The translations under genes were made by a program, and so were the position numbers. Shown here piece after piece: positions 7,677 through 29,199 of a stretch of DNA of 64,000 nt (positions are counted from its first letter, which is position 1; each line of letters begins with the position of its first letter). This DNA comes from Nemertoderma westbladi (taxonomy: Eukaryota > Animalia > Xenacoelomorpha), in contig JAUCBJ010001408.1 of the NCBI GenBank assembly GCA_032718475.1, positions 22,022-86,021 of the forward strand, given 5' to 3'. The notes below the pieces were generated by a model. The model saw only the letters and a program-made list of their open reading frames with translations, ran no database searches and had not been told where the DNA came from.

Positions 7677-8366
7677 TCATTTCAACTCGAGAAGCCGGAT
7701 TGTAGATAGTAAAACTATCCCAATAAGGTCCTTTCTTCCACCCCCCATATACCAAATTCTTTCCAAAATATACCAAATTTCTTCCACCCCCCTATAATGA
7801 TACGCACCATATTCTCCGTTCAAGTTACTCCACCCGCACCAGTCGTACCACCACGCCCCAGTACGATATACGGCGCAGTTGGAGTCCCACCTGTCATTAT
7901 CGCGGTCTTTGGTAGAGAATGGGAGACCGTTGTGCCACTCCAATGAGTCACCAGCAGTACCATGGTAACCGGATACATGTATGGTGTAATTAGTTGTAGC
8001 TGATCCGATAGAGAAGTTGTTGTATTCCGCGTATCGGTGTTCGTTGTTGTAATCCACCCACCCCCTTCCAGTGAACCACAAATCGACCCTCAACTTCACC
8101 CCGCCTTCACTCAGCTTGTGGATCATCTCCAACCCCATCCAAAAATTGGTATTCGGGTCGCCAAATCCTTCAACATATTCATCCCAGTTCCGATAGAAGT
8201 CAACAGATCCATCAACTCGTTGTTGAATCTTCAACCCATCTTTCTGCTTTATTAGCCGAGGAGCCATTTGCTGATACAGTGTAATGGATAATTTCCCTAT
8301 CTCTGTATCATGTAACATGGAAACGAACTCTTCCAACTTTGTAACCTGTTCTTCCAACTCTTTATT
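7677..8366 (-). CDS. Terminal exon (5) of a secreted fibrinogen-related-domain (FReD; ficolin/angiopoietin/tachylectin-like) gene
   Basis: Motifs IQQRVDGSVDFYRNWDEYVEGFG, FWMGLEMIH, YAEYNNFSIG, GYHGTAGDSL, FSTKDRDND, NCA..GAWWY..C..SNLNG. Phase-0 acceptor TTTCCTAACAG at 8367. Stop at 7677. Confidence 0.93.
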   Translation of the reverse strand, partial: NKELEEQVTKLEEFVSMLHDTEIGKLSITLYQQMAPRLIKQKDGLKIQQRVDGSVDFYRNWDEYVEGFGDPNTNFWMGLEMIHKLSEGGVKLRVDLWFTGRGWVDYNNEHRYAEYNNFSIGSATTNYTIHVSGYHGTAGDSLEWHNGLPFSTKDRDNDRWDSNCAVYRTGAWWYDWCGWSNLNGEYGAYHYRGVEEIWYILERIWYMGGGRKDLIGIVLLSTIRLLELK

Positions 8367-8739
8367 CTGTTAGGAAATATTATTAATTGAAATTGTTTAT
8401 TAAATTCTGTAAATCCTCTGCCCACATCTGATCAGTGGTTGGGTTGGAGTTCTCTAGGGAAATCATTAAACGCCGGCATTTCGACCCAACATTTAGAGCA
8501 ATTAAATACTAACTATATTACGTCGTTGCTAATAAAATAGCACATTATAGCGTTACGGCACGAGTGATTTTGTGTAGTGAAATAATAAAACGAGGGCCGT
8601 AAAAGATTTAATGTGGTGGAATTATTTGTAGTTTTGCACTTAAACTTTCTAGAACAACCTAATAATGACGCGGTGACATACTGGATATACTGAAATACAT
8701 AGTAAATGTATGGCGTAGGGACATACTGAGAAATAATGT

Positions 8740-10967
8740 TATTCGAAGAGACGGTAACAATACCTGCAATATCCTACTGTAAAGTTTGTAAATCAAATCA
8801 TAAATCCGACCTTCTCACCAAAACAGTAAACTCTAAGTAAACGAATATATTGCAGTATCGATCTCTTATAACCGGTGAGGCAGAAAACAGTCTACGAGCA
8901 GACAAACTTCGATGAAACAAAATCCCGCACAGCGAATCCTAAAATCAGGCTGACTCACTGACGGACTAAGGGGCTCGTATACTTTGCCGCGGTGTGATTT
9001 ATATGGTTTGGGCAAAAGGGACGCTAGCTAGGTACAGAGGCAGATATTTGGAGATGTCTAACTAGCGAGCAAAGTGCAGTAAGGACGAAAGTTAATTTTA
9101 TATATTTTGAGGTGTAAATAATTTCTAACGCGCGCGTGTCAATTCTGAACGGTCAAAGCAGTTTTGCTCCTTCACATATATAATTACTGGGTACGGTGTG
9201 CATTTTACGAATATTCTAATTTTATAACTTGTAGGTCCAATACTCACGAATGATAAGGTTCCTTCCCCTCTTGCGTATTTCCAGGACTCAAATTCAGGCA
9301 TAAGGTTAGTACTACGCCCAGAATTCGGCAATTTTAGGTACCAGGTCCCTGATACTAAGAAGAGATGTGTTAGTTTACTACTGTAGGCGTACGGGTACTA
9401 ATAGCTATCCTGGCTCCTATCTAGAATTTTAGTCACCCAGGTAGTCCGGGTAACTTCCTATTAGGGCGTTGGCGGGGACACGGTAGATGTTAGTATATCC
9501 CTAATAGCCTCAATTTATTTGCGCCTAGTACGTAAACTGCCCTACCGCCTGAACGGTACAATCCCAATTCAGGTGAAAACACAGCAACCCCCCTAGCCTA
9601 CAAGTTCTAATACAATGGACACTGTCGTACGGCAAATAGTCACAGACGCACCTGTACTTAGCAAGAGTTAAGCGTACAGTTTGCTGCACCCTAACCAATG
9701 TGTATGCCTTGTACCGGTGTGCCTACGTCCTATCTGCGTACTAGTATTTGCCTGCGCTCTCCCTCCCCCCCGTAGGAATATGAAGGTCTACTGCGGTTTT
9801 TCCTGAATCAAGACAGTACAGTCCCTATGATGTAATTTTAGGCTTGCAGCGTGTCACTACGTCTACCTTTTGATCTTTTGGTCTTACACTTAGGTAGCAA
9901 GGATCGAACGCTGTCTAACCTTTCAGGCGATGGGCGAATAACTCTAGATGGTATTGCGGGTTGTCTCTCGTCTACATTCCCGTGATGTTCCCGTTCATTG
10001 CTGCGGCCCGATCTCTAGCCGGCCATCCTGTCCCTTAAGTTTGTTCACCGTAGTGAATCCATGATAAAACAGATAGAAAAGGGCTGAGTTTGACAAATAT
10101 TTCTAACTTTTATTACAAATCAAACAGATAAGATAATAAAGTCTCATTAGTACAGATTGAAGAAGTAGTAGGTTGATAAGAAGTGAACTAATGAACGAAA
10201 TCGCACCTTTATATACCGAATTTGTGCCGCAATCAATCGAGAAAATTCTCGATTGTTCTACAGGTTCTAACGGGGTTTTAAAGATAGCTATTGGTCCAGC
10301 TAATATATAACTTGCACGACATTGGTTACAATCAAATAACTACAGTCTCATTGGTACAGATAAATGCAATTAATTTGTAGCGGTTAATTTAAACGAGTTG
10401 AAATTCTGTACAAAAAATAATTCGCACTTACTAGGATTCGAACTTTCTTTCAATAGATAATTAAGTCTTATTCTAATAATAATAATAAAATACATGACAT
10501 AATACAATTAACGAACAAAGCAACACAAAAACAGCACTGACAATGGGAAACAACAAAGAGTTAAAATTCGTCTGCCAGCCCAACACCGCGCAGACCCGCC
10601 CCGTCACCAAATCCGAGAGCCCGCCAAGACCGACGTCCCCCTCGGAGGCAGAGGGAGTTGGACCGGAGGAGCGCGAACTGCAGCCGCCGGCGAACACCCC
10701 CCAGAACGCACGCGAGGCCCCTCTCTCTCATACCATCCCGCCTCGACACAAGTGTCTCGGCGAGATGGCGGATTAGGATTCGAACTCAATACCTACTACA
10801 CATATAATTTCCAACGCTCTACCGACTGAGCTACTGAACCACTTGACCGATAGATGTACAAATGATAGAACCAATACGAATGAGAACTCAAAGCAATCTT
10901 TACAAAGTTAATTCGAATAAAATAGAAATTTTGAAAATCCACGGCATTTAGGGAATATAATTCTATA
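8740..10967 (-). repeat. BEL-A 3' LTR (2228 bp, includes 342 bp absent from the 5' LTR)
   Basis: Direct repeat of 26723-28607. About 8 substitutions and one 1-bp indel seen by eye, plus the 342-bp block between 13-bp repeats at 10432-10444 and 10774-10786. Confidence 0.97.
10774..10840 (-). promoter_or_regulatory. tRNA-derived Pol III promoter (A and B box) in LTR U3; second copy at 28414-28480
   Basis: Minus strand GGTTCAGTAGCTCAGTCGGTAGAGC...GAGTTCGAATCC has an intact D-arm (GCTC/GAGC) and T-loop but no acceptor-stem 3' strand or anticodon stem, so it is not a tRNA gene. Confidence 0.7.
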
Positions 10968-10975: not shown

Positions 10976-11666
10976 TGAAAACAGGATATTATCGTGCATA
11001 AAATATACGGTTTTCACCAATAATCAATCAAACTATAGAATACTTAGGGCGTACTTACATATTTACAAATTAAATTTCAAATAATACTTCCTTTCTACGT
11101 AATGATTCGATACAAAATAATTACAAATTCAAACTTTACGTATTTAAGGCTTTACTAAGTAAGTACAATATAAATCTAAATTAAATTCACCAATATAAAT
11201 CTATTGCATCTCAAATATTGCATAAATTCAAACAATTACAAATACAAATAAATGAAAACAATAAGAAAGGCTCGCGAGTCTTCCATCTACTATTGCATCT
11301 CAAATATTGCATAAATTCAAGTAATTACAAATACTTTCGTACCTAAATGTAGATTGCATAAGTTTGGAATAATTACAAATATGAGTCTTTCTAAGCACAA
11401 AACTTTCTGACTATAAAACTTTCTAAATACAAAATATAACACTTTACAAATGAAACTATAAGAAAGGCCCACGAGTCTTCCATCTACTCTTACTTTCTAT
11501 TTCACTGTAAATACAAATACTGCTTATAAAATATAAATTGCATAATATTCGGAACAATATAAATTGCATAAGTTCGGAATAATCACAAATATAAAATATA
11601 AATTCAAATAAATCACAAAATCATAAGAAAGGCTCACGAGTCCTCCGTCCACCCTTGCCCTCCCTT

Positions 11667-14600
11667 TTATCGCTTAGTAGATCGAGCCCTGCCGCGTCCT
11701 CGAAAACTGCGCACAGGTGACTTTGCTCGCGATATGGGACTTGTGGGGCGAGTCACTGGTTTACTTGGGACGTTGAGAGACGGTGCGACTATTTCCTCAC
11801 AAATTCGTCTATTTGGCATCCCAAAACCTCGACCGATTCCTCGTGACCGATCAGTTGTCGCTACAGTTGGTAGAACGTCTGGGAACGCGCGAGAAGCGGA
11901 CGACGCAGACCCAAGAGTAGCTTGCGCCCCCTGTTGATCAGCTGGTGTATGTCCCGATCCTCCTACTGGTTCTCTTGGAAGTGATACCGTATCCCGAGTA
12001 ACTTGAATAGTCGGCTCAACTCCCTTGCGTTCTTCTACATTAATAATTTTCTTTAATTGTTGGCCCACTTTCTGGACCCGTATGATCCTACCCTGTCCGT
12101 CCTCCCGAGGGTGACATGCAGACGGCGCAACCGGAGTGGCTGGTATATTCGTCGCCTCTAGGACCTCCTCTTCCTCGAATACGCTCGCTCGTATACGTTT
12201 GTGGTAAAACGCGGCTCGGTACGCCCATGCGACGGTTAACCAAGCTCCTTTATTCCGCTTTTCGGTTCGGAAACGATCAAATTCACCATACGTGATACGA
12301 TTTACGACTTTCTGAAAATTCCACGTGTTTTTGTTATCTGGGTGAATCTGTAACAGATACTCGCGCACCACTCGGAATCCGCTGTCGTGGGGCAAAATAT
12401 CGACAACCTCGATAAGTTCGTCATACTGGGGCATAGCGGAGATGTATCCTTTCGACATCATCGTCTGGGGATTTACCGCCCAAAATCCGAGATGCGCTCT
12501 CATCGGAAACCGTCTTCTTTGTGCCGATACATGTTCGTCGGCTAAATCTTCCCACTCATCAAATAACTTCCTCACGAGTTTTACAGATTCGTGTTCATAA
12601 GGTATGTCTCTTAGTTGGCATTCAGATGCTCGATGTCCCTTTATATTGCAATAAGTACATTGAGCCATAAATCTCCAGCAAGTATAAAAGGTATGAGACC
12701 CTTGATCCCCACACCATCCACAGATTAGCTGAGTCGTAGTAATGTGCTTTCCACTGCACTTTGTCATATGATGTCCAGCGACGCCACATTTACTACACAT
12801 CGTATTAGCAGGGTACCACACTCGTTCGTATATAAGATCTCCAATCGGTCGAGCGCTTCCTCCCATACTATAATCGTAATCATCTGGGTCTATGGGTTGG
12901 TAGGTTTCTGAAGGTTGTATACAAACTATAGCATCTGTTGCTTCAAGTTGTCGAATCTCCGTCTGAGATTTCTTTGGGAGGTTCCTTTCTATCTCAAGAA
13001 GTTCCTCTAAAGGATCGTCGGCGATCGTAGTAGTTACTTCGAATTCATCACCAAGGTGACCGATAGGCGCGCGCGTCTGCCGTGATTCATCCGTAATTTC
13101 CACGATACGTTCTCCTTCATAGGGTAACAATGTAAACATAGATGGTCTTTCGATAAGAGATCCCGCACAGCAAAGATACACGTCTCGAAATATACTAAAT
13201 CCTGCTCGAGTAAAGGCATTACACTGAGCGTCGGAGTTGTAGAAGGGTTCAAGGAATCGTCTAAAAACGTCGGTACGAATTCTCCCTTCCATGTAGAACG
13301 TATGATCTTCTCCGAGACAAAGTGGATGTCTTTTGAGAGTCCGAGACACAATGTCGGCGATTAAGCAAACATTCACTGACGACTCTATTGCTAAATAATA
13401 TTGTAAGACCGCTCTTGGAGGTGACGTAATAGCCCAATACACGCATCCTCTCCATTTAAGCTGTGATTCAAACTCACTCATATCTGGAGTATCACCTTCT
13501 CCATAAGTTTCAATATACTTGTTTCTCTTATTTTCCTTATAATCCCAATTGAATAACAGGTAGGAAATGTATCCAGTTCCAGTCTTCTGAGTATTATACT
13601 CACGAAAATATCCCTGTTCTATAGACCACAGAATAAGAGGTCGAGTGTCGACGTATGGTGTCGGTAGTCGGTCATCGCTGTCCGTCATGCCGGCGAAGTC
13701 GCTAATTAAATCCTCCCTTACTCCTGATCCAACCTTTACAACAGTTTTATCTAAAATCATGTTTCTTACCATCTTCGGTAACATTCTAGCGTCGATATTA
13801 CAAGCTTGGTCCATCTTCTTTACTATGTCGGTGATAAGATGGTGTCGCTTTGTATTCGCTGGAGGTATCGGCATTCGTTTGTCGCTCCTCTGTCTACTGA
13901 AAACGTGCAGGACTCCGTCCGCCGCTCTAATTTGTATAGTCTTAGAAGTCAAACTCTGCTGATGACTGCCTCCCTCGTTATCGTAAAACATGTAACCGTT
14001 TTCCTGAAACGATCTAAACGTCCTAGTCCATTCATCCAACAATTCTTCCGAAGGTTGCCAAATCTTCTCTATATCCTTATCATCTTCGAAACGAATAACC
14101 TTACCTCGCCAATCTGCGGCAATATCTGTATCCGACTCGAAGGTTCCGGTTCCAATCCATAAACGAATCGTCTTGGTTAGATATCCTTTCAGATTACTCG
14201 GAGCTATATCGGCACCAGCTCTATCCAGTTCCTTGAAATCTTGAATATGAGGTGGAACGTTGTACACGACCTTTTGAGTAATATGTCTACGTAAATCATA
14301 TATCTTACTCATATCGCTGAAAACAACTGCAGGAAGAAACTCCAAGTTTGAAATGATTTCTGGATGATCCACGATGGGTATTTCGTACGTCGTATCCTGT
14401 CGGACTGGTATACTAATAGGAAAATTGAGTGTCGTACTCAATGGTTTCGTAGTTGAAGTACTATACGGTTGCATTTCTCTTGTCCTTTCCGGGGATGCAA
14501 TCTGTAGTCTCTGAATAACGTTTTGAGCAAAGTTTATGCTCTCGAAAACTTCCGGTGTCATCTCCTTAGCTGGAGTTTGATCGTGTGACGTCCAATGGCA

Positions 14601-15392
14601 AGGTAGGCTCGCGAGTCTTCCACCCCATTCTTCCATCTCACCTTTCTCGAAAGCCTTGTAGGCTCTGTATAGGCTAAGAGCTTCTTTCTTTTCGCGGGTT
14701 GACTGATTTGCCTCGTCCAGCGTAAGTTCAAATACATCGGGTTCAACAACCTTAGGTGGGTAAATGACAGTTTCTCCCGCCTTTGGTCCGGTCATAGCAA
14801 ATGAATGATATGGATTCGATAAAGGATACCCTCCTTCCTGGTAGCGTAGTTGTTGATGGTTCGAACACCTCACCAATATCGGTTCGGGATTTTCCTTATT
14901 CAAACGCATTGGAATCGCATTTCGTTGTTCGCGCATACAAGAACCGCATTGATAATAAAGTTTATAAACTGAAAATGCTTCCTTGGTTTCTCTATCGTCC
15001 CTTCGAGTTCGTCTGTAAAGATGCATTCCATCAAATTCATCTCTTACCGCGGGCATAGGTTCGTGCGCCTTTAGGTATTGCATGGTATGATACAAACGAC
15101 TAATTTCAGTATTGGGGTCTTCGCTAATGTCTCCCGTATCACACAAAGCGTCGTACGGGTACAGTTCATTGAAGGTTTGACACAAACTTTCGATTCTTTC
15201 GTTTAATGCGTTTTGTCTTCTCTTTAATACGTTCGAGTCATATTTAGTTCTCGCGAGTTTCGCTGTACTTTCCGATAATTCTTTTATACCAAATATAGTG
15301 TAGTCCTTGGCTCCAAATCTTTCGAATGGCGCTGCTGCCTCCTCTTGAATATCATATCCCCATCTCGGCTCTCCTTGTGTCCCTTTCTCCAT
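11667..15392 (-). CDS. BEL-A accessory ORF2 (1241 aa): DEDDy-type 3'-5' exonuclease domain plus three CCHC zinc knuckles
   Basis: ExoI FYDNEG..KTIQIR (~13930-14000). ExoII LPKMVRNMILDKTVVKVGSGVRED (~13705-13780). YVDTRPL. ExoIII W..SP...LQYYLAIE (~13380-13440). Knuckles CSKCGVAGHHMTKC, CGWCGDQGSHTFYTC, CTYCNIKGHRASEC (~12620-12800). No signal peptide or TM segment seen. Confidence 0.8.
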   Translation of the reverse strand: MEKGTQGEPRWGYDIQEEAAAPFERFGAKDYTIFGIKELSESTAKLARTKYDSNVLKRRQNALNERIESLCQTFNELYPYDALCDTGDISEDPNTEISRLYHTMQYLKAHEPMPAVRDEFDGMHLYRRTRRDDRETKEAFSVYKLYYQCGSCMREQRNAIPMRLNKENPEPILVRCSNHQQLRYQEGGYPLSNPYHSFAMTGPKAGETVIYPPKVVEPDVFELTLDEANQSTREKKEALSLYRAYKAFEKGEMEEWGGRLASLPCHWTSHDQTPAKEMTPEVFESINFAQNVIQRLQIASPERTREMQPYSTSTTKPLSTTLNFPISIPVRQDTTYEIPIVDHPEIISNLEFLPAVVFSDMSKIYDLRRHITQKVVYNVPPHIQDFKELDRAGADIAPSNLKGYLTKTIRLWIGTGTFESDTDIAADWRGKVIRFEDDKDIEKIWQPSEELLDEWTRTFRSFQENGYMFYDNEGGSHQQSLTSKTIQIRAADGVLHVFSRQRSDKRMPIPPANTKRHHLITDIVKKMDQACNIDARMLPKMVRNMILDKTVVKVGSGVREDLISDFAGMTDSDDRLPTPYVDTRPLILWSIEQGYFREYNTQKTGTGYISYLLFNWDYKENKRNKYIETYGEGDTPDMSEFESQLKWRGCVYWAITSPPRAVLQYYLAIESSVNVCLIADIVSRTLKRHPLCLGEDHTFYMEGRIRTDVFRRFLEPFYNSDAQCNAFTRAGFSIFRDVYLCCAGSLIERPSMFTLLPYEGERIVEITDESRQTRAPIGHLGDEFEVTTTIADDPLEELLEIERNLPKKSQTEIRQLEATDAIVCIQPSETYQPIDPDDYDYSMGGSARPIGDLIYERVWYPANTMCSKCGVAGHHMTKCSGKHITTTQLICGWCGDQGSHTFYTCWRFMAQCTYCNIKGHRASECQLRDIPYEHESVKLVRKLFDEWEDLADEHVSAQRRRFPMRAHLGFWAVNPQTMMSKGYISAMPQYDELIEVVDILPHDSGFRVVREYLLQIHPDNKNTWNFQKVVNRITYGEFDRFRTEKRNKGAWLTVAWAYRAAFYHKRIRASVFEEEEVLEATNIPATPVAPSACHPREDGQGRIIRVQKVGQQLKKIINVEERKGVEPTIQVTRDTVSLPREPVGGSGHTPADQQGAQATLGSASSASRAFPDVLPTVATTDRSRGIGRGFGMPNRRICEEIVAPSLNVPSKPVTRPTSPISRAKSPVRSFRGRGRARSTKR

Positions 15393-16050
15393 AATTAGGG
15401 TGTAGTTACATAATCATTACTACTAGAGGGAATACAACAGAGTTTGTAGTTAGTTGTGAGGAGACGTGAGAGTTTCGTCTGCCCTTTGGGCTTCAACAAC
15501 GCTCTAACCTCCTATCCATAGCCTAAGATCTAGGGTTTCTTTAATGACACGCTGCTTCTTATCTAAAATTTTTTGCCGAAGTAAAAACGAATTTGGGCTA
15601 AACTGGCCGTGAGACTAAAATACTCACCTTTTGATCCCAAACTATTATCAGAAAATAAGCAGTCAAGAATTAGTAATAAATATAGGGGAGTCTATTTTGA
15701 CGTAACTTATTGAAACAAGACCGTGTAAAATTTAATTAAAATTTTAAGAAAGGCTCGCAAGTCTTCCTCTCTTGTTTCTCTAATTTTAAGTTCCACCCGA
15801 CTGTACCCTGAAATCTATTCACTGGAGAAAATTTTAAAAATTTTCAAATCCAAATGGATTGTCTAAAATTTCGAAAATGTCTCAATATTGTGAGTTCCAA
15901 GTAGAATTCCATTTCTTATACCTACAAATCCCGCTCCTATGTGACACATAAGGGTACTACCCTCAATGTTCACATATAAAGACAATGGAATTCTACCGCT
16001 GTCCTTACTACGGTGTACAGGTACGTGGAAATCTATTTGTAAACTCCTAA

Positions 16051-18342
16051 TTATTTACTAGTATTAGGTGGAGATTTGTAGTCTCCAGACTCGTTACGAG
16101 TCTCTTCAAGAAGTACGAGACGTTGAGTCGGTCTGTCTACTGTACGACCGTCAATTGTCCGTACCGTCACAGTTCTTGTCACTCCATCCATAGATGGATG
16201 TGTGGCTAAAATTACACCTGTTATCCAGAAGCGTCTTTTTAGATTCACTTCCGCTAACAGCACGTGATCTCCCGGCTTTAATGCCCGGGTGTTATTGTAC
16301 CAAGTTGTTCTGGCAGAAATAGAGGGCAAATAATGGTTTTGCCATACTTCCCAGAATTTGTTAGCCAGTAGTTGCGTGATTTTCCACGCTTTTCTACCGT
16401 AGCTGTCGCTTTCTGTTGGAATAGAAATTGGCGTCAAAGTGGTCGGTGCCTGCATTAACAGGTGTGCCGGTGTCAAAGCAAACTGAGATTGTTTGTCATC
16501 GGGTACTAATACTATTGGTCTAGTATTTAGTATTGCCTCGATTTCAACAAACAATGTTGTCAGTTGGTCGTCTGTCAGTATGTGGTTTACTGGAATGACC
16601 TTTGCCATGGCTGTCTTTATAGATCTAATCAATCTCTCCCAGACTCCACCTCTCCAAGGACTATCTGGAGGATTAAACTTCCAAACAATCTTGTGAGGTT
16701 GTAGTTCGTTCGAGATTTGATCATGATCTAATTTCTTAAAGGCTCTAGCAATCTCATTCCGAGCACCAACAAAGTTTGTCCCTTGGTCTGAGTACAAGCA
16801 TTTTACTAGTCCGCATCTAGCGATAAATCGCCGCAGTGCTAGTATAAACGCGTTGGTGGAAAGATCCATCACACGTTCAATGTGAACTGCCCTACTGGAC
16901 ATACATGTGAAAATCAGTCCCCAGCGTTTTACTAGTATACGTCCACGTTTCGTATGTATGGGACCAAAGCAATCAATACCAGTCTCTGTAAAAGGTGGTC
17001 TGAATGCTTGAAGTCGTGCTTGTGGTAGTTCACTCAATTCCTGGGTACCTATTCTAGAATGTACCTTTTTACAAATAATACACGTACGTGTCACTGAACT
17101 TAATGCTTTACTGGGTCTAATTAATACAAATCTTATACGTAAGTAGGAAAGACAGTGGTGTCTTCCAGCGTGTTTCAGATGTAAATGTGCGTCCAGTATC
17201 ATTGCACGTTGTAGTTCGTGATGTTGCGGTATTATTATTGGGTACCTAAAGTTCGTGTTAAAGTCAATGTTTTGAAGCCGAGATTTATGACAAATTAAGC
17301 CATTATAAATAATCGGACTCCAACTCAGTATTGGTGACGACTTGATTGGTTGACCTTGATTTATGGATGTGAATTCGCGCGCGAAATATCGCAGTTGGTA
17401 ATGGCGAATTAATTTAATCTCACACCTGTCAATCTCAGCCAATGTAAGTCGACGTGTAAAGTCACGTTTGCCTTTAACGTATTGTACGAAACGTACAATC
17501 CACGCTAACTTTCGGCAAGCGTTTGACCAAGAGTCTGTTAAGTTTACAATCCGGTCGACGTGAGTATTGGTGACGTCATCAGGTAAGTCAATGGAGATTT
17601 TGGAAGGTTTTGAATTACTAGAAGGGCCCACGGGTCCGCCGGTAAGTATTCCCTTGTTGACTGTTGATCCGTCCGGGTCTACAAGTAATTTGTCCTTCTT
17701 CGTCTTCTTACCTTGATTGTCAGTACTTTGTAAGTCGATCGTTAATGGTGGTTTGAACTCTATGGGATCAGTGGGTTTCGGTAAACTTATTTTTCTGCCG
17801 ATATTAATCCCAGGTTTCACCATAGGTTGCAAGTTCGGTATGTCTCTTGAGCGCAAAGTAACACCTGTATTTACATTAGCGTAGGTACTACCCACATCTG
17901 TAATACATGAGGTTTCACCGTGCTTATGGTTGCTCAAGTGTGTCAAAATTGGTAGTTTGTCAATACAAGGCCGCTCCAATAGGGAAACTGCGGCTTTACT
18001 GTTAGTCGATACATTACTAATGTCCGGTAGAACATTTTGTGATGTTTCTGACAAAATGTCTAGTCGACTGTCTAGTAATGTGTCTGGCGATACGTCTGGT
18101 AACGTATCTGGTTGTTTGTCAATAGAAGGCCGCTCCAATAGGGAAACTGCGGCTTTACTGTTAGTCGGTGTGTTACTAGCGTCTGGTAGAATGTCTGGTT
18201 GACCGTCTAGTAACGTGTCTGGTTGACCATCTGGCGATATGTCTGGTGTAGAAAGGCTCGCAAGTCTTCCTCTCTTGACCTTTGAAGTTATCGCTTGTGT
18301 CCTTCTGGGCTCCTCCCCGAGGCGCACCCACGAGGCGGACAC
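16051..18342 (-). CDS. pol: BEL-A integrase-containing ORF (low-complexity linker plus HHCC and DDE integrase)
   Basis: HLHLKHAG...CIICKK, GIDCFGP, SDQGTNFVGA, GGVWERLIRSIK, LNTRP, LTPAHLL. The true start is unknown. Confidence 0.92.
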   Translation of the reverse strand: MSASWVRLGEEPRRTQAITSKVKRGRLASLSTPDISPDGQPDTLLDGQPDILPDASNTPTNSKAAVSLLERPSIDKQPDTLPDVSPDTLLDSRLDILSETSQNVLPDISNVSTNSKAAVSLLERPCIDKLPILTHLSNHKHGETSCITDVGSTYANVNTGVTLRSRDIPNLQPMVKPGINIGRKISLPKPTDPIEFKPPLTIDLQSTDNQGKKTKKDKLLVDPDGSTVNKGILTGGPVGPSSNSKPSKISIDLPDDVTNTHVDRIVNLTDSWSNACRKLAWIVRFVQYVKGKRDFTRRLTLAEIDRCEIKLIRHYQLRYFAREFTSINQGQPIKSSPILSWSPIIYNGLICHKSRLQNIDFNTNFRYPIIIPQHHELQRAMILDAHLHLKHAGRHHCLSYLRIRFVLIRPSKALSSVTRTCIICKKVHSRIGTQELSELPQARLQAFRPPFTETGIDCFGPIHTKRGRILVKRWGLIFTCMSSRAVHIERVMDLSTNAFILALRRFIARCGLVKCLYSDQGTNFVGARNEIARAFKKLDHDQISNELQPHKIVWKFNPPDSPWRGGVWERLIRSIKTAMAKVIPVNHILTDDQLTTLFVEIEAILNTRPIVLVPDDKQSQFALTPAHLLMQAPTTLTPISIPTESDSYGRKAWKITQLLANKFWEVWQNHYLPSISARTTWYNNTRALKPGDHVLLAEVNLKRRFWITGVILATHPSMDGVTRTVTVRTIDGRTVDRPTQRLVLLEETRNESGDYKSPPNTSK

Positions 18343-19498
18343 CTTTCCACCACCCCTGGGGCCAGTCCAACAGATGTTATCATCAGACCGGGCCGGAGGG
18401 TGGCCTGATGCTTCCCGGGTTCTGTTTTCGGTCCCCCGATCACACCAGCACAGCTCGTCGAACGTGTAGCCAGATGGGCGGCTACTGTCAACTTACTGTG
18501 GCCTGACTGTACATTGAGCCAACTCAAAGTATAACAAAGAGTCAACCGGCAGGTGGACCAGTCGATAGCGATCGAGCACCAAGGTCGCCCTTGGGCCTAA
18601 CCGACGGTCTTGTCCCAAGCGGGCTTGCGCTACCCAACATGGAATATTGACACGTTTTCACCTGCCTCGCCGGCAATATTGAGGGGACACCGTTCCTCAA
18701 CAATATTGACTAGCTCGAAAGCTAGGAACAAGTAACCACTTACCCGTCCTGTACACGTGTACTCAACAGATGTTCACGAAATCAAGTACACTACGGTAAA
18801 CACAAAATCTGACACATACCATGCACACACAGAGGACATAATCGGGTAAAGACAAAATCGGGGTCAAAATCGGGAAAGACAAATCAGAGGGGACAAAATT
18901 GTATCGACCAAGCACCAAGTCGAGAGTACCTTATTTTGCCGTCAGGGCAAAATAACTTTGTGTGCACAAAGTATGCTGGGGCGCAGTAAAGTATGGTCCT
19001 ACTAATACCAGCGGCGTCTTGTCCAACTGGCAAGGGTTCCCATACCCACTCGCAGTGGCCACACATACAATCACGTGTACTCACGTACCCACAGCAACAG
19101 AAAACTCAAGACCCGACGGTTTATTCCAATGCCACCAAAGACCAAGTCAGCTGAACATGGAGACAATAACATATAGTATCAAAAAAACGGAACAGCTGAC
19201 GGTCAATGGAACCATCCAAGCCCCAAGCAAACTGCCACTGATCGCCCACATACAAAACATAGTCCACGCCACATGAGCCACAAATCACGCCATGCCACCA
19301 CCCCTACTGTGTACAGGACTGGCAGTACGGCAACAGGCCGACTAGACGGTACCACGGCACCATGGCAATTCATGGTTCGTTAGACACGAGGGCCATCAGT
19401 ATCTCCCTTGCACTTAGGCGAAGAGATTTAACGTGCCCCCAGACCCTCACGAGTCCGCCGCCGCCTGTTAAAGACACCCCTATAGAGACCTCACCTCT

Positions 19499-20398
19499 TT
19501 AGGTATCTTTCCATTTCGCCTTCGGTTTTTTCTTGAGTTTTGCCACCGTCGTCCTTTTCTTCGCCTTCCCCTTTTTTGGTTTCTTGATTTCAGCGTCCTT
19601 AGGGATGGTGTTAGACTTGTTGTCGTATAACGGCGGCCAATGTAGTGTTGAACCTTGTAAGAATTGTGGTCCGTGTTGCCAAAATTCTTTGTTCTCCGGT
19701 TTACAGAATTCCTCAGGCATCATTCCTCGCGACGCAATATCAGCTGGGTTTTGTGGTCCGGGACAATGTCGCCAATCCTCTTTTATTGAACGGTCTAGAA
19801 TTTCCGCGCGACGGTTAGCTACGAATGTCTTGAATTCTAGTGTGTCGTTGTTTATGTAAAATAAAACCAACGTCGCGTCAGTCCAATAAAATATCTGTAA
19901 ACTTGACTGTAGTTCCGTCTGTATGAGGTTCACAATGGTGGTTGACAGTGTTGCGGCTTGTAGCTCAGCTCGTGGTGTCGTCATATACTTAGTAGGCATG
20001 GTCTTAGCCTTAGAAGTAATGAGCGAAACATCGAACTCGTCTGAGTCTACTTGTCTGCGCAAGTACGCTGCCACACCAAAACCGTTGTCACTGGCGTCAG
20101 AAAAACAGTGCAATTCCAAGTTGTCAGGAAATGTACTTTGTAATGGAAAGTAAACCCTGGGTATGAAATAATCCTCTAACGAAGATAATTCCGCCTCCCA
20201 GGTCTTCCATAAGTCCACTTGGTCTGATGAGATCGGCTCGTCCCATGTTAGTCCATCCTTCCATATACTGCGCATATAAATGCGGGCTTGCAGTATCACT
20301 GGACTGATGAATCCTAACGGATCGAACAATCGGCTCAATTTTGACAAGCATGATCTCTTTGTCAGTATGTTCTCTTGACTGTCCAGTCTCACTTTCAC
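19499..20398 (-). CDS. pol: BEL-A RT-connection/RNase H segment, in frame with gag-pol after a TGA
   Basis: TKRSCLSKLSRLFDPLG, LHCFSDAS, PRAELQAA, YWTDATLVL, FVANR, WRHCPGPQNPADIASRG, WQHGPQFL. Confidence 0.92.
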   Translation of the reverse strand: MKVRLDSQENILTKRSCLSKLSRLFDPLGFISPVILQARIYMRSIWKDGLTWDEPISSDQVDLWKTWEAELSSLEDYFIPRVYFPLQSTFPDNLELHCFSDASDNGFGVAAYLRRQVDSDEFDVSLITSKAKTMPTKYMTTPRAELQAATLSTTIVNLIQTELQSSLQIFYWTDATLVLFYINNDTLEFKTFVANRRAEILDRSIKEDWRHCPGPQNPADIASRGMMPEEFCKPENKEFWQHGPQFLQGSTLHWPPLYDNKSNTIPKDAEIKKPKKGKAKKRTTVAKLKKKPKAKWKDT

Positions 20399-23300
20399 TC
20401 AAAAGTTGTCTGTGTTTGGGTCCCAAAAGAGCCCCAACACCTTAGTCGTCGGTAGTGGTTCGAACTCTAGGTCTATGTCACCACCTCCACGCTCAGTAGT
20501 CCCGAATGAGTCTACTAATTCGGCACTGTTTGAGGCGAATTTGGTGAGGTTAAAACCTCCGCCCGCTAAGCAGTCCCGTAATTGATGTGCTACTGTGTCG
20601 CAACTCTGTAAACCGTCGTCTACATAAAAGTCACGTTCTACGATTTTAATTATCTCTGGGTCATATAGATGTTTCTGATCCCTAGCGGCCTGCTTTAGGG
20701 CGTACATCGTGCAATTTGGGCTGTCTCTGGCACCGAAAACGCGAACTTGCATTTGGTAAGTCGCTGGTGGTAGACTTAAGTCTCCTTCCGGGTACCAGAG
20801 GAACCGCAAACTGTCTCTGTCTCGCTCTAACGCTCTCACTTGGTGAAACATCGCTTCAACGTCACAAGTAAAAGCTACTTGACGCTGACGGAAGCGCATA
20901 ATCACCCCCATAAGATAATTATTCATGTTTGGTCCATCCATCAACTTACTATTGAGGGACATTCCCTCAAACAGAGCCGCACAGTCATTGACTACGCGTA
21001 CTTTATCTGGTTTGTCGGGGTGTCTCACATAGTGATGTGGCAAGTAATAGGTTTGGTCAGTCACTATCTCCGGGTTAGTCATTCGGATAGCATATCCCTT
21101 AGTCAAATACGTCTCCATCTGAGTGTTGTACTGCAGATGGGCTTTCTCGTCCTTTAATAGACGTTGCCGTATTGAGTGTAGACGTCTCAAAGCCAGTGGA
21201 TAGTTGTTTATAAGTTTAGGACTTTGGCTACGCCATAACATCCCTACCTCATAATGTCCGTCTTTCGTCTGGCGGATAGTATCTTCCATGATCTTCAGAG
21301 ATTGTTTCTCCTGTTCCGACATACAAGGTTCGTAGCTACCAGGTTCAGCTGTATCTTGTTCTAACCACCTGATAGTCTTCTCCGTTAATTCTTTGTCCAG
21401 TGCAGCTTGTTCCACTTGATGAATTTTCAACGCGTCATCATCGATATCGACGGGCACTGTTGAGGTTATTGGGGTAGGTAGACTCGCAAGCCTATCATCT
21501 GTCGTCGATGGAATCTCTAGCTGACTCGTCTTCTCCCCAAGTTTTAAACTCACCTGGTGGGTTAGCTGCTCCTTGTGACTTATCATACTAGTTACATGTC
21601 TGTCATGTTTTGTCGACTGTAGCGTAGTATGGTTCACGTCGTGTGAAAAGGAATGAATTGAATTTGTAGTTAATAAACTACATGTACTCTGTACATCGAC
21701 TTCCTCGTCACTTACGTCTAGTGTGCGCACAGGCGCTCGAGTATACCACCCTATCGGCGTTCTGCAGGCGTATGCGTTTCCCGCTACAACTGCCGATGGT
21801 CTGGTTTCCCACACCTGATGTAGGTTGAATTGGTCTGTCCCGATCAGCATTGCTACCGATCTATAATTGACAGGACATTCGGGTACACCAAGGTGTCTGA
21901 AATACTTACGGTCCTCTAGAGATTGTTCCGGCACTGGACCTAGTAGGTTACTAAAGTCCTTCGTAGCCGCAAAGGTTAGATCTTTAAAGGGCAACAAAGA
22001 CCTCTCCCTCTCGCTGTGTTGCGATTTCGGAAGAAGAGAGTCTAAGTCTAACTTAACTCGTGTCACTGGTATTGCACGCTGTCCGTGCATACTACTTACT
22101 GTATAACTGACCTGCTTACCTTGTCTGAGATCCGTCACGACGTCAGCTATCTTTTCATCCACGTAACTGTGAGATGAGGCTGAATCTAGAATCGCGTAGA
22201 TCCTCTTACTCCCCTTTGTGCCAGTGATCTTAATCGGGATTACACTGAATCCCTTCAGTTGGTCAGTGGTCAGAAGCGCGATCGACGGTTGTTCGTCTCC
22301 ATTGGAATATTCGTCGTCGTCTTCTGATTCTTCGTCCGACGATCCGGATTGTTCTGAGAAGCAATCCTCAATATGGGTCACGAAGGTTGGAGTCGTTTTC
22401 GATTCTCGTTTCCTGTAGGCCGCATCACATCTTGCTGCTGCTTCCGGGTGTTCCCTGGCGAAGCGTTTCGTCGGCGTGTGGCTGTCTGTGTGGAGCAGAC
22501 CGTCGTGGTTGCGTCCACAGGATGGACAAGTGTCGGTATTTGGGCAATCTTTACGGACGTGTCCGTGTCGCGTACACCGCCAACAAGAGTCCAGTGGCCG
22601 TATCTGCAGCTGTCGTTCTTCCGAGTTCAACTCGCGAAATTGTCGACAACCTCGTAACTTGTGACCGATATACCGCTTGCCTAGATGCTCGCAGTATTGG
22701 CAGCCGCTGAAGTCGGTACTGAGTTGTTGTCTCGTCTGTTTTGTCCCAATGGGCGCAGATACCCTACTACCGTCGGAGAATTGTCGGGTTTCAGTCGATG
22801 TGGTGTAAGTGGCCGTCTTAGTGGATGTTGTCTGGGGTTTTTGTCGGTTGGAGGATGGCAATGTGATTCCTTCTGCCACGATGTGCTGGTCGGTGTAGTT
22901 AGATCTAGTTTCTACTACTGCCTCCCTGTATATTAAAAGGTACACATCTTCTAATTTTAAGAATCCTCCCCGCTCTTCTCGCTGGTATTCGACCTTTCTC
23001 CACTCCCGACAAAGTCGATGGTGGAGTCGTCCTATGATCTTTAATAGGACTGTAGGGGTATTCCCGTAATCAAGTTGTCCAATGGATCGTAAAGTAGTGA
23101 TAGCGTTCTTGATTTCGTCGGCCAGTTTTAATAAGTCGACGGGTTTAGTGATAGCCCCTCCCTTACAGAGTTCCTCTATTACTGACCTGGCCATACTAAC
23201 TGTACCTCCGTATATCGAAGTTAAACGATCGTACGCTAGTTCGAAAGCGTCTGGTACACCAACGAAGGTCTCTGCCAAACGTTTAGGTTCTCCTGACAAC

Positions 23301-25912
23301 GTTTGGAGCAGGTAATTGAACTTCTCCCGTGATGTAAAGGCGCACACGGCGATCTGGGATTCGATATAGTCTACGAAGGTATGCCAGTGTTTTGAGCTAC
23401 CGGAAAACTTCGGTGGTTGTTGTACCGGCAATCCCTGTCTGGCTGCGAATTTTGCTATCTCCTCAGCAACGTTCAGAGTTTCGCGTCCTTGGTTGGTACA
23501 CTGGTTGATGTTCTCCCTTCTTGGCGCTTTTCCCTGATACGATGTGGGGTTTGAAGGTACCGGTCTTTGTGGTGCCTTCGGGTGTCTATTGTGTTCGAAT
23601 TCGGTGTTCCTCGAACTATCGGTTTGAACTTCCTCCAGACGCTCCTCGATCTGAGCCAACTTGTTGACAACTGGTCGCAGAATGTCGGCGAACTGTTGTG
23701 TACTAATTGCGTCCGTTGGTTGTAACGCCTTCTGTGTTGGTGTATTCTGTGGAGGATTGTCTGCAAAGGAGTTGTCTGAATGCTCGCGTTTATATTCATC
23801 GGCCGCCCCTGTTCTAAATACCTCGCGTTTCGGGTAATCCGATTCGCTCGAAGTACTATTATCATCTGGATATGGTGGTCGACGTGCTCGCGTCCGTTGC
23901 GTCGTACTAATTCTAACGGTTCGTTTCGGAACATCGTCTCGCTTTCGTTGTTCGGTAGGCTCACAAGTCTTCCTCGAAGTCGTAGATTGCGATGTAAACT
24001 GGTTGAGCGGTCGCGTATCCACTGTTCTCCGTTGTTCGGTAGGCTCACAAGTCTTCCTCGAAGTCGTAGATTGCGATGTAAACTGAACCGGTGGTCGGAT
24101 GACCGCGTTTGAATCCAAAGGCCTTGTAGGTCGAAACGTCATTGGGTAAGCGTAGTGTGTAACGGGTTTAGGTGTCAAAGGTGGACTCACCTGTTTAGTC
24201 GTCAGTAGTGCAGGTCCAGTCAACAAACTACTACGATCTGTAATCGGCGGGTTACTTACCTTGACTTTCGGAATAGGCGACGACGTTGCTCTTGGCGGTG
24301 TAAACTTGTCCGGAATAACAAACCTGTGTTCCGTCGCACCATGGATAGGAGAAATATCACTACTACCCGCAATCGAAACAGGTTCCTTAGTCGTAACCGG
24401 TGCAAACATATGCGTTACCTGTGGGAATCGTTGACACACGTCTTTTACTAATTGTCGTTCCCGTCCGGGTGCTCCTACACTTCCTTCTTTCTTCCGTTCC
24501 TGAATTTGGCGATGTCTTACCTCTAACTGGTCCAAATCATGTCCGTCACGAGATCTCATCGATCGATCGCGGGCCTTTTGATCCAAATCTTCCTCGGCGT
24601 TCGCTAATTCTCTCGCCTTCTTCTCGAGTTCGAAATGAAGTTTAGCTGTCTTCTCTCGTTGTTCCGTTTGTTGTCGTTGCGCCTCAAACTCCGCTTGTCG
24701 TATAGCGGATTGAGCTTTTATTTGCCGTGTTTTCATTTCGGCCCGCGCTTCCGAAACTAACCTTTCTCGTTCTAATTCTGCCGCTGCCGTTTGTCGCTCT
24801 AGTTCGGCCGCTGCGTTTTGTCGCTCCAACTCAGCCGCTGCGTTTCGTCGCTCTAACTCGGCCGCTGCCGCTTGTCGTTCCAACTCAGCCGCTGCCGCTG
24901 CCGCTTGTCTGGCAATGTCTACTTCTAACCTTTCTACTTCAGCTGCTTCTAATTCAGCTTGTTCCTGTAGATGAGAGATTCTTGCTATATTCGCAACGCG
25001 TAGCTTCTCTTCCTCTACTGCTGCCTGCATCACTAGAAGTTGAGCTTGTTCTTCCATTTCTTGTCGTTGTCGGTGGAATTCTTGCTGTTGTCGAGCAACT
25101 TCTGACGTGACTATACTTCCCTCGCAGATTTCGCTACGAATACTTACCAACGATTGGTCCAGTATTCCCGGTGCCGATTCAATTCGTACGGGTGAAATTT
25201 CCCTCGTATATTCCGGCACGGTTTCCCAATCTCCGACGTCTTCGCCGCACATACGTAAGTGGTCCGTCAGGTGTTTCAATTGTCCATCAAGTCGGTACAG
25301 TTCCTGTTCTTCCTCGGGCTGTAATAATTCGTCCGAAACTGATTCACCTAACAACTGGTCCGCTTGTTCCTGTTGTATCTGTCTAATCGTCGACTTAAAC
25401 TGAATCAGTTTCTCTCTAGCGATCATCAGTTTCTCGAGGATTCTAAGTTGAGTATCCATGTCCTGTCTCTGTCTAGCTAGATCTTGTAGACCAATTAGGT
25501 TATCTACGGACTTGTGTACTCTACTTTGTACTCTAACCTGGAGGGTGTAGAACTCGAATCGAGACATCGGAGTGGTCAACTCGTCTAATATGCGTTGGCC
25601 TTCCCCAATACTCCTGGTTATATGCGCCATGTAACCACCGACGCTTCTAATCACACTTTCTGTGCTTCCTGCTGAACTTACCATTTCCGTTTCCCTGTAT
25701 CTAGGTTGCGGAACAGTTAGAAAGTCCTCGGTCCTGCCGTCGCCTCGTACTATGGCATCCGGTACTCCCGTTGGATGTACTGGTGACGCACACGGTGTAG
25801 GTTCGGTAGGCTCGCGAGTCTTCCCCTGTTGTTCTTCCGCTGCTGACTTATCTCCATCACATAAGTCATAGTCGGTTTGTGTATTCTTCGTATAGTCTTG
25901 TTTGTCACTCAT
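20399..25912 (-). CDS. gag-pol: BEL-A Gag-protease-RT polyprotein (1837 aa, ends at an in-frame TGA)
   Basis: Coiled-coil N-terminus. Gag PKFSG..W..F, EKFNYL. Three Cys/His motifs ending CPSCGRNHDGLLH. Protease ILDSASSHSY. RT YYLPHH, DVEAMFHQV, FYVDD. Confidence 0.95.
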   Translation of the reverse strand: MSDKQDYTKNTQTDYDLCDGDKSAAEEQQGKTREPTEPTPCASPVHPTGVPDAIVRGDGRTEDFLTVPQPRYRETEMVSSAGSTESVIRSVGGYMAHITRSIGEGQRILDELTTPMSRFEFYTLQVRVQSRVHKSVDNLIGLQDLARQRQDMDTQLRILEKLMIAREKLIQFKSTIRQIQQEQADQLLGESVSDELLQPEEEQELYRLDGQLKHLTDHLRMCGEDVGDWETVPEYTREISPVRIESAPGILDQSLVSIRSEICEGSIVTSEVARQQQEFHRQRQEMEEQAQLLVMQAAVEEEKLRVANIARISHLQEQAELEAAEVERLEVDIARQAAAAAAELERQAAAAELERRNAAAELERQNAAAELERQTAAAELERERLVSEARAEMKTRQIKAQSAIRQAEFEAQRQQTEQREKTAKLHFELEKKARELANAEEDLDQKARDRSMRSRDGHDLDQLEVRHRQIQERKKEGSVGAPGRERQLVKDVCQRFPQVTHMFAPVTTKEPVSIAGSSDISPIHGATEHRFVIPDKFTPPRATSSPIPKVKVSNPPITDRSSLLTGPALLTTKQVSPPLTPKPVTHYAYPMTFRPTRPLDSNAVIRPPVQFTSQSTTSRKTCEPTEQRRTVDTRPLNQFTSQSTTSRKTCEPTEQRKRDDVPKRTVRISTTQRTRARRPPYPDDNSTSSESDYPKREVFRTGAADEYKREHSDNSFADNPPQNTPTQKALQPTDAISTQQFADILRPVVNKLAQIEERLEEVQTDSSRNTEFEHNRHPKAPQRPVPSNPTSYQGKAPRRENINQCTNQGRETLNVAEEIAKFAARQGLPVQQPPKFSGSSKHWHTFVDYIESQIAVCAFTSREKFNYLLQTLSGEPKRLAETFVGVPDAFELAYDRLTSIYGGTVSMARSVIEELCKGGAITKPVDLLKLADEIKNAITTLRSIGQLDYGNTPTVLLKIIGRLHHRLCREWRKVEYQREERGGFLKLEDVYLLIYREAVVETRSNYTDQHIVAEGITLPSSNRQKPQTTSTKTATYTTSTETRQFSDGSRVSAPIGTKQTRQQLSTDFSGCQYCEHLGKRYIGHKLRGCRQFRELNSEERQLQIRPLDSCWRCTRHGHVRKDCPNTDTCPSCGRNHDGLLHTDSHTPTKRFAREHPEAAARCDAAYRKRESKTTPTFVTHIEDCFSEQSGSSDEESEDDDEYSNGDEQPSIALLTTDQLKGFSVIPIKITGTKGSKRIYAILDSASSHSYVDEKIADVVTDLRQGKQVSYTVSSMHGQRAIPVTRVKLDLDSLLPKSQHSERERSLLPFKDLTFAATKDFSNLLGPVPEQSLEDRKYFRHLGVPECPVNYRSVAMLIGTDQFNLHQVWETRPSAVVAGNAYACRTPIGWYTRAPVRTLDVSDEEVDVQSTCSLLTTNSIHSFSHDVNHTTLQSTKHDRHVTSMISHKEQLTHQVSLKLGEKTSQLEIPSTTDDRLASLPTPITSTVPVDIDDDALKIHQVEQAALDKELTEKTIRWLEQDTAEPGSYEPCMSEQEKQSLKIMEDTIRQTKDGHYEVGMLWRSQSPKLINNYPLALRRLHSIRQRLLKDEKAHLQYNTQMETYLTKGYAIRMTNPEIVTDQTYYLPHHYVRHPDKPDKVRVVNDCAALFEGMSLNSKLMDGPNMNNYLMGVIMRFRQRQVAFTCDVEAMFHQVRALERDRDSLRFLWYPEGDLSLPPATYQMQVRVFGARDSPNCTMYALKQAARDQKHLYDPEIIKIVERDFYVDDGLQSCDTVAHQLRDCLAGGGFNLTKFASNSAELVDSFGTTERGGGDIDLEFEPLPTTKVLGLFWDPNTDNF

Positions 25913-26711
25913 TTCGGTAGTTGTAAGTCAAGTAAAGTGAGTGTCAAAGTATCGAGTTTACCGTATTTATATCTAAACGGTACTAATTACAGTCTTATAA
26001 AATTAGCCTACCGGCCGATTTTATAGCAGATGGATAAAATTAGCCTAAACGGCCAATTTTACAGCAAATAAATGTCACGGAATAAGTATATAATAAAATT
26101 AGCCTAGTGGCCAATTTTATAACAAATAAATCGGATAACGATATGCGTTATCAAAAAGGTAAATTAAATACAATAATACGGACTAATTCAGCAATGAACA
26201 AAGAAATCATACGGAATGCATAAATACTTGAGACAGTGGAACCCACAATAATTTTAACTAATACGGTAATGCCTAACTTATTTATGCAACTTTTCGAACT
26301 CACCCACTCCAATAATTCTCCAGAAAAACAGATTCCCAGATACAAACCGGACGTGAACCTTTCCGTTTTCAGCGTTGCGGACGAAGCGCGATTTTCCCAA
26401 CCAAAGTAGTTGGGTTATCTATCTCCCAAACTTGCTAAACACGGTCTTGCTCCCGTTACAGTCTAGAAATGAGTCCTGAATCCTGAAAAACAAAAGAGTT
26501 AGGTTTTACTTTACGAAAAATTTTGTACCGGTACAATATGGTATTTAAACCCTTTTAAACACCGGTATTCAATTCCAAAATATTTTACGCGCGGTTCAAA
26601 TCAAATTTTATTTCAAAAAATTAGCACTTAGCTAATCAAATACGAACTTTTACCTCAAAATACAAAATTTTCAAAATAACTTTAGTCCTACCGAACCGTA
26701 GTTCAGTAAAA

Positions 26712-26722
26712 CATATTCCTAC
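26712..26722 (-). promoter_or_regulatory. Non-tRNA primer-binding site of BEL-A (GTAGGAATATG), complementary to LTR-internal 27754-27764
   Basis: No TGG-initiated PBS. The 11 nt abutting the LTR are the exact reverse complement of 27754-27764 and 9772-9782. Confidence 0.75.
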
Positions 26723-28607: not shown

Positions 28608-28830
28608 AATGTCGCACTGCGATATAAAGTTAGGAAATATGTCGCCCTGGCGATTTGGTAGTGCGAAATTAATTCCACACAAATAAATAAAAACATAATA
28701 ATAAAACAGAAGGACTTCAACACGGCAAATAATTATGTTACAAATAATTACTGGTTAAGAAACTAACATCGTTCTTTAGCTCATTATTTACATCGACTTG
28801 GTTAGTTAGGTTTGTATTTAAATATTTTAC

Positions 28831-29132: not shown

Positions 29133-29199
29133 CTGTTAGGAAAAATTATTATAACTTTTAAGAAATTGTCGCGCTCTCGTCACCGTAGTAATTATAATG

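Follow-up and report, generated by a model that had tools for sequence, protein, structure and literature searches.

A predicted DEDDy exonuclease with zinc knuckles in the env position of a BEL/Pao-type retrotransposon of Nemertoderma westbladi

The genome of the xenacoelomorph Nemertoderma westbladi contains a BEL/Pao-type long terminal repeat (LTR) retrotransposon with an accessory open reading frame, ORF3, in the slot between integrase and the 3' LTR, that is, in the env position of a BEL/Pao element. The element lies in a stretch of 64,000 nucleotides (nt) of contig JAUCBJ010001408.1 (assembly GCA_032718475.1, positions 22,022 to 86,021 of the forward strand), here called the window; coordinates below are those of the window. 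ORF3 is an intact accessory gene under purifying selection, likely expressed from its own spliced mRNA, and we tentatively propose that its product, a predicted exoribonuclease, may trim the 3' ends of the element's RNA.

The ORF3 protein

ORF3 runs on the minus strand, in the same orientation as gag-pol, from an ATG at 15392 to a stop at 11667, and the chance probability of an open frame this long is ~1e-33. The initial annotation, made from the letters alone, had described an uninterrupted 1241-amino-acid (aa) frame co-oriented with pol, and the coordinates and strand agree. The motifs it listed (ExoI, ExoII, an ExoIII of the form Y-x3-E, three knuckles, CxxC..CxxH and an Arg/Gly tail) can all be located; Q487 of its proposed Q motif is present but varies among homologues. 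ExoI is D471-x-E473, ExoII is KVGSGVRED561 and ExoIII is Y666-x3-E670. The knuckle at aa 891, CX2CX5HX4C, has the canonical spacing plus one residue. The features of ORF3 are as follows:

11667-15392, minus strand: ORF3, encoding accessory protein P0001, 1241 aa; open frame under purifying selection
13293-14105, minus strand: predicted DEDDy-type 3'-5' exonuclease domain, aa ~430-700, from profile, language-model and fold searches and homologue alignment
13980-13982 (D471), 13974-13976 (E473), 13710-13712 (D561), 13395-13397 (Y666) and 13383-13385 (E670), minus strand: putative exonuclease residues
12618-12797, minus strand: three tandem zinc knuckles, aa 866-879, 891-905 and 912-925; P0007-P0009 also have three Cys/His clusters
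12378-12575, minus strand: unnamed module 3' of the knuckles, aa ~940-1005, alignable in all three homologues
14856-14948, minus strand: possible N-terminal zinc site, CxxC149...CxxH179, seen in sequence only, in a stretch of ~400 aa for which searches gave no relative
11670-11855, minus strand: basic Arg/Gly-rich tail, R+G 31% over aa 1180-1241

A phmmer search with aa 355-981 against 1.8 billion representatives returned four matches. One of these, the named plant protein P0006, was dropped, its similarity being limited to the knuckles. The other three, P0007-P0009, are unnamed environmental proteins from ENA (558-648 aa, 21-33% identity to ORF3) that align across the exonuclease, the three knuckles and the C-terminal module, and a profile built from these three only scores P0001 at 89.8 bits, compared with 3.6 for the best of 500 shuffles. 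Because all three share the whole arrangement at 21-33% identity, by this comparison the predicted exonuclease, three knuckles and C-terminal module form an old protein family. D471, E473, D561 and Y666 are invariant in all four proteins, and the last metal ligand, in ExoIII, is Glu in P0001 and P0009 and Asp in P0007 and P0008. From the ligands retained at this divergence, we consider it probable that ORF3 is catalytically active. Word-indexed homologue searches found nothing beyond the phmmer relatives, and viral, metagenome and prokaryote contigs contained no related loci.

Pfam gives no exonuclease match to ORF3, its sole match being zf-CCHC at E 0.033, so the exonuclease call rests on the homologues and the fold. 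Searching PDB by phmmer with P0001 or with the exonuclease domain alone gave chance-level matches only. The family domain profile, however, matched EXD2 among PDB sequences at E 0.028 (the only other row was EphB2, E 0.61), pairing ExoII residue by residue with KVGVGCSED of EXD2 and placing Y666 and E670 on the EXD2 YxxxD motif, with the ExoIII register below threshold. In the Atlas, 24 of 30 feature matches fell in 3'-5' exonuclease clusters half-labelled PF01612 (score 0.93). No usable Atlas match was obtained for aa 1-400, around the CxxC...CxxH site, which proves neither absence nor novelty.

The structure model used throughout is an AlphaFold model from the four-sequence alignment, shared by the Foldseek, VIA-align and viral fold searches; a single-sequence model, with a predicted local distance difference test score (pLDDT) of 31, was set aside. 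The ExoI D-x-E sits on strand E73-80 of the model. In Foldseek the top 11 rows are all EXD2 (best E 3e-4), followed by RICE1, RNase D, Rrp6, NrnC, the Trypanosoma brucei RNase D (TbRND), Egalitarian and Nibbler. In VIA-align EXD2 reaches Z 9.0 with a root-mean-square deviation of 3.3 over 102 residues, ranks 1-28 are all chains containing a DEDD exonuclease, and the fold matches include the exonuclease domains of Pol I, WRN and EXD2. Each of these lines is weak alone, and the profile, language-model and fold searches agree. Taken together they make it very probable that aa ~430-700 adopt a divergent, DnaQ-like DEDDy exonuclease fold of the RNase D/EXD type. The initial annotation had expected an RNase D/WRN-like fold from a structure search, and would have been contradicted had neither profiles nor structures returned a DEDD fold; Foldseek and VIA-align both rank EXD2 first, and EXD2 also appears in the profile search.

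The relatives of this fold class carry characteristic partner domains: a transmembrane anchor in EXD2, Mut7-C in Nibbler/Mut-7 and HRDC in Rrp6. ORF3 has no Pfam match to these partner domains at E<=1 and no hydrophobic segment, although divergent domains could escape such a search. It also lacks a membrane segment (its best 19-aa hydropathy window is 1.38). An envelope glycoprotein identity was rejected, given the missing hydrophobic segment and best viral fold matches that are exonucleases (E>1e-3).

The carrier, selection on ORF3 and its probable message

The carrier has the following parts:

26723-28607, minus strand: 5' LTR, 1885 bp, with TA...TA ends
8740-10967, minus strand: 3' LTR with a 342-bp insertion (~10445-10786)
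28608-28612 and 8735-8739: 5-bp target-site duplication, ACATT
19499-25927, minus strand: gag-protease-reverse transcriptase (RT)-RNase H region (DUF1759, Peptidase_A17), with an in-frame stop at 20399-20401
16051-18290, minus strand: integrase part of pol (Integrase_H2C2, DUF5641)
~18291-19503, no strand assigned: 1213-bp insertion splitting pol between RNase H and integrase
26483-27901, minus strand: intron 1, GTTAGA...TTTCAG, which starts within the 5' LTR and runs through the primer-site position, its joint in one contig of run X4
15423-26303, minus strand: intron 2, GTGAGT...CTCTAG, its joint in one X4 contig

DUF1759, Peptidase_A17 and DUF5641 all score above the Pfam cut-off and constitute the BEL/Pao signature; the order protease-RT-RNase H-integrase between LTRs is that of Belpaoviridae, and the target-site duplication is 5 bp. 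BEL/Pao elements measure 4.2-10 kb, with LTRs of 0.2-1.2 kb and an 18-nt tRNA-Arg/Gly primer site (PMC8742986). The carrier departs from this norm in its 1885-bp LTR, its length (~18.3 kb without its two insertions) and the absence of a TGG-starting site after the LTR, and because LTR size, length and primer site fall outside the norm we call it an atypical, BEL/Pao-type element. Its insertion was recent, since the two LTRs differ at just 8 of 1885 aligned sites. Pol is broken in this copy by the in-frame stop and the 1213-bp insertion. In three of four runs (X1, X2 and X4), contigs bridge the insertion site, so the insertion is not family-wide, and the stop is absent among 40 displayed variants (607 further variants lie outside that display). 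The initial annotation had remarked that ORF3 is intact while pol is broken. The observation holds, but it says little about domestication, because the copy is young and the insertion is missing from other copies.

Copies of ORF3 were surveyed in contigs of public runs, and five of the nine runs listed contain ORF3 or part of it. Contigs fitting ORF3 number 3895, 1555, 178 and 13 in four runs, and pieces only ~81% identical still span the gene. Because there are thousands of contigs, including these divergent pieces, ORF3 exists in many copies in three public runs and has a diverged sister family. Among the 40 variants displayed of 255 ORF3 variant places (one run may be the source of the window itself), 24 are synonymous, against an expectation of 12.7 for the same substitution types (p 1.4e-4, omega ~0.31). 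None makes a stop, none falls in a catalytic codon, 27 lie in aa 1-430, and the four listed indels are all outside ORF3. ORF3 is thus under purifying selection. A comparison of nonsynonymous and synonymous change among copies had been suggested at the outset, along with the worry that ORF3 might be a neutrally decaying retrocopy found in this copy only; the many copies and the synonymous excess speak otherwise.

Splicing was screened from 22 displayed contig joints (28 more lie outside the display), two of which fit GT-AG. Both are confined to X4, where a single contig supports each, the shorter side being 30 letters long for intron 2 and 27 for intron 1. X4, whose DNA label is a guess, may consist of RNA or contain DNA copies of spliced transcripts. 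Run X5, guessed to be RNA, with another organism label and a depth of ~3, was left out of the evidence for expression. Removal of intron 2 brings the 5' leader (donor side at 26304) to 30 nt before the ORF3 ATG, and its acceptor is preceded by a branch-point-like CTAAC and a pyrimidine tract. This junction indicates an env-style subgenomic message, and a spliced mRNA of its own is the likely source of the ORF3 protein. Downstream of the splice acceptor and ahead of the ORF3 ATG there is a three-codon upstream reading frame (15411-15417, minus strand), and the putative first exon contains several further ATGs.

Possible functions of ORF3

We favor, with less than even confidence, a role for ORF3 in trimming the 3' ends of element RNA. 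A metal-dependent 3'-5' exoribonuclease of the RNase D/EXD type would be translated from the spliced mRNA, its three zinc knuckles would load it onto the element's own RNA, and it would trim RNA 3' ends during replication. The candidate substrates would be the 3' end of genomic RNA or an element-derived primer. From the nucleocapsid- and Air2-like knuckles we infer that RNA, rather than DNA, would be the substrate, and we presume that this RNA is the element's.

A candidate binding site for the protein is a dispersed 17-nt motif that occupies both coding and non-coding parts of the element:

11268-25824, minus strand: 17-nt motif with a palindromic core, nine sense copies (<=2 mismatches) and one antisense copy
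25824, 24057, 23973, 18270, 15767, 14621, 11646, 11481 and 11284, minus strand: the sense copies

The remaining 44 kb of the window contain no copy, and 20 shuffles gave none. The motif folds weakly (-2 to -8 kcal/mol) and not always into the same hairpin, which makes for a weak case that it is a stable hairpin; it is possibly a packaging, dimerisation or protein-binding signal.

Several points weigh against the trimming proposal. Glu stands in place of the final Asp in P0001 and P0009, and the Pfam and NCBIfam matches are all below threshold. The AlphaFold model has a mean pLDDT of 37 (45-58 in the exonuclease core), and the Z 9 alignment with EXD2 stops at ExoII. The substrate is assigned by inference, not directly. 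Because the exonuclease domain accounts for only 7 of the 40 variants, of which 4 are synonymous and 3 are not, purifying selection is not separately attributable to that domain, and the remaining 215 of the 255 variant places are outside the selection count. Joints in X1, X2 and X4 skip ~2.0-2.1 kb of ORF3 (13108-15259), so that the N-terminal region and the exonuclease are gone and the knuckle half is kept. Because these joints are not GT-AG, they are probably internally deleted copies of ORF3 without most of the exonuclease domain. Lastly, the window contains a second BEL/Pao element, whose 2706-aa reading frame is intact and which has no ORF3-like gene, so such a gene is not required by all BEL elements.

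An active nuclease could also serve in counter-defence, over-trimming or destroying host PIWI-interacting RNAs (piRNAs), small interfering RNAs (siRNAs) or their precursors and thereby lowering silencing of the family. The fold class is common to Nibbler, EXD1 and Egalitarian, a separately spliced message would permit action in trans, and in two runs the variant contigs of the family number in the thousands. We nevertheless regard counter-defence as rather unlikely: those three proteins rank under EXD2, with no special similarity to them, and the element-specific repeated motifs hint at a target in cis. Alternatively, ORF3 might have no catalytic role and act as an RNA-binding adaptor, similar to Rev, CERV or Egalitarian, whose binding to the repeated motif would serve to export, localise or protect genomic RNA in its unspliced form. 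With two strong introns, unspliced RNA has to escape splicing, and the basic tail, the three knuckles, the nine sense copies of the motif and the Glu in ExoIII would all suit an adaptor. Pseudo-nucleases, however, usually lose their metal ligands, whereas here the other ligands and the Tyr are kept in all four distant members and the final Asp in two, and the motif itself folds weakly. There is a precedent in CERV of Caenorhabditis elegans Cer1, an export factor that, in the accessible text of its description, is an accessory protein made from spliced retrotransposon mRNA and acting on element RNA (PMC10309623). Overall we consider a purely adaptor function unlikely.

Two other explanations seem to us weaker. 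A role as a DNA exonuclease, in proofreading for RT or in the processing of cDNA ends, would be consistent with the Pol I, WRN and EXD2 domains among the fold matches and with the unusual TA...TA ends of the LTRs; we think it very unlikely, as ORF3 is unfused to Pol and has its own acceptor, the knuckles favor single-stranded RNA, and the nearest matches include RNases. The initial annotation had inferred an RNA-processing accessory protein, with RT proofreading among its options. A real accessory gene is borne out, and proofreading is the weakest of those options, because ORF3 has its own splice acceptor and is outside Pol. The idea that ORF3 is a captured host gene copy carried neutrally is already largely refuted, and we give it hardly any weight. 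The ORF3s of rotifer elements provide a parallel in that they are reported, in the accessible part of their description, to show no departure from neutrality (PMC5408684). Here, in contrast, ORF3 variants show a synonymous excess, the ~81%-identical sister contigs still span the gene, aa 355-981 have no close host relative among the 1.8 billion representatives, and there is a dedicated splice acceptor.

A more specific role for the trimming activity is suggested by the primer site:

26712-26722, minus strand: 11 nt at the primer-binding-site position, not starting TGG
27754-27764, also 9772-9782, minus strand: LTR-internal perfect 11-nt complement of the primer-site sequence

A match of this length was reached in 8 of 20,000 LTR shuffles and by 12 of 15,722 internal 11-mers. 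By duplex energy 2 of 300 shuffles are as good, but 45 of 300 random internal 18-mers equal it. An AATAAA lies ~250 nt downstream of the LTR-internal 11-mer. In X1, X2 and X4, contigs agree with the first 9 nt past the 5' LTR (to 26714) and then continue into a different leader, which suggests a sister subfamily that retains the primer-site core, and the second, exonuclease-less BEL element in the window has no comparable primer-site pairing. Conceivably, the lineage has dropped host-tRNA priming, and the ORF3 exonuclease trims the 3' end of an LTR transcript into the element's own primer. The knuckles would guide the exonuclease to an LTR-containing transcript, trimming would start at the 3' end and stall where the 11-mer at 27754-27764 pairs with the 11 nt past the 5' LTR, and a paired 3'-OH would be left for RT. 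We consider this improbable, since the complement was noticed after the fact, the 45 random 18-mers are its energetic equals, and RNase H could yield such a primer without an exonuclease, as in Tf1-style priming. If true, primer trimming would represent a novel way of priming, and a DEDDy nuclease carried by a retrotransposon would have its first defined function.

The LTR also contains a tRNA-like stretch (28415-28480 and 10775-10840, minus strand) with words that, by eye, resemble an A box and a B box. Neither ARAGORN nor Rfam calls a tRNA anywhere in the element, which leaves a self-encoded tRNA primer unsupported. The 342-bp insertion in the 3' LTR is GC-rich and AT-tailed, and lies at the B-box-like word with a duplication of ~13 bp.

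Related systems and other features of the window

Exonuclease-like ORFs in retrotransposons have been described before. The bdelloid rotifer elements Juno, Vesta and Athena/Terminons carry an RNase D-like DEDDy ORF3 with a DEED motif and unproven activity (Rodriguez, Kenefick and Arkhipova 2017, PMC5408684, accessible text), and later papers, likewise accessible in part, cite this work (PMC6338049, PMC6431247, PMC5718144). Juno and Vesta resemble the present element in having a DEDDy ORF in the env position, one acidic residue replaced by Glu, and no transmembrane domain. In contrast, the rotifer carriers are Ty3/gypsy-like (Juno and Vesta) and Penelope-like, with DEED, whereas here the carrier is BEL/Pao-type, with D-E-D-E. 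In the accessible text of PMC5408684 the term 'CCHC' does not occur and knuckles are mentioned for gag and pol alone, whereas ORF3 has three. ORF3 is further set apart, by description rather than by a tree, in its conserved C-terminal module, its 1241 aa and its measurable purifying selection. DNA transposons of the KolobokD type carry a DEDDh exonuclease, according to the accessible part of PMC9587614.

Among cellular enzymes, the EXD2 exonuclease domain (PDB 6k17/6k19) is the best solved match in Foldseek, VIA-align and the profile search, with an ExoII that aligns residue for residue. At 15-18% identity, and with ORF3 lacking a membrane anchor, we liken the two in function and not as orthologues; EXD2 has other domains where ORF3 has knuckles. 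TbRND (7c42/7c45), which trims the U tails of guide RNAs, combines a DEDDy domain and a CCHC knuckle in one chain, as ORF3 does, but it is a cellular enzyme and the similarity is weak (Foldseek E 8e-3). Similarly, in the pairing of Rrp6 with Air2 a knuckle adaptor serves a 3' exonuclease; this system, too, is cellular and only weakly similar. Malik, Henikoff and Eickbush reportedly noted, in 2000, that Cer BEL elements of nematodes have an RNase D-like domain beside a phlebovirus-like env. In that unconfirmed case the exonuclease accompanies env, whereas ORF3 stands alone in the env place. The word 'exonuclease' is absent from the papers on BEL, nematode elements and LTR evolution PMC2774666, PMC13524379, PMC9094657, PMC3118150 and PMC7084138, and the ICTV profile of Belpaoviridae names no exonuclease (PMC8742986). 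CERV differs from ORF3 in being the product of a Ty3/gypsy element and, in the accessible text, having no nuclease described (PMC10309623), whereas ORF3 belongs to a BEL/Pao-type element and is a predicted nuclease.

In the literature covered, which excludes most subscription papers, Repbase and GyDB entries, and supplements, we found no BEL/Pao element described as carrying a DEDDy-knuckle ORF3. The initial annotation had mentioned exonuclease-like domains in a few nematode LTR elements and called for a check of novelty; novelty is reduced, because DEDDy ORF3s of rotifer Ty3/gypsy elements were already published (PMC5408684, accessible text). To the ORF3s reported in 2017 the present case adds a BEL/Pao-type carrier and a predicted EXD-like enzyme whose three-knuckle layout persists in very distant relatives. 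It also adds evidence that ORF3 is under selection and that its message is spliced, as well as two candidate targets in cis: the primer site with its LTR-internal complement, and the 17-nt motif. Purified protein and RNA data already in existence could now be used to test the role of retrotransposon-borne 3' nucleases.

The second BEL/Pao element occupies 39073-54292 on the minus strand, inside a satellite array, and has a pair of 684-bp repeats that are 99.7% identical. Its gag-pol frame (2706 aa) lies at 42819-50939, and in the 3 kb past pol there is no ORF >125 aa and no exonuclease remnant. A GGAGCGG tract before the 3' LTR is common to both elements.

An ORF with a fibrinogen C-terminal domain (7677-8369, minus strand, Pfam E 1e-38) lies just beyond the 3' LTR of the ORF3 carrier. 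Because a similar short repeat is present at both flanks of the carrier (8333 and 28860), we suggest that the insertion site lay in or close to a host gene region that is repeated. Elsewhere in the window, an 89-bp inverted repeat (94%) at 29194-29386 has Rfam matches below the gathering score that probably reflect its hairpin. Tandem arrays of 27, 68 and ~146 bp occupy 1-1060, 29496-30679, 34700-39200 and 54200-64000, and the ~146-bp array is built in higher-order units of ~2.2 kb.

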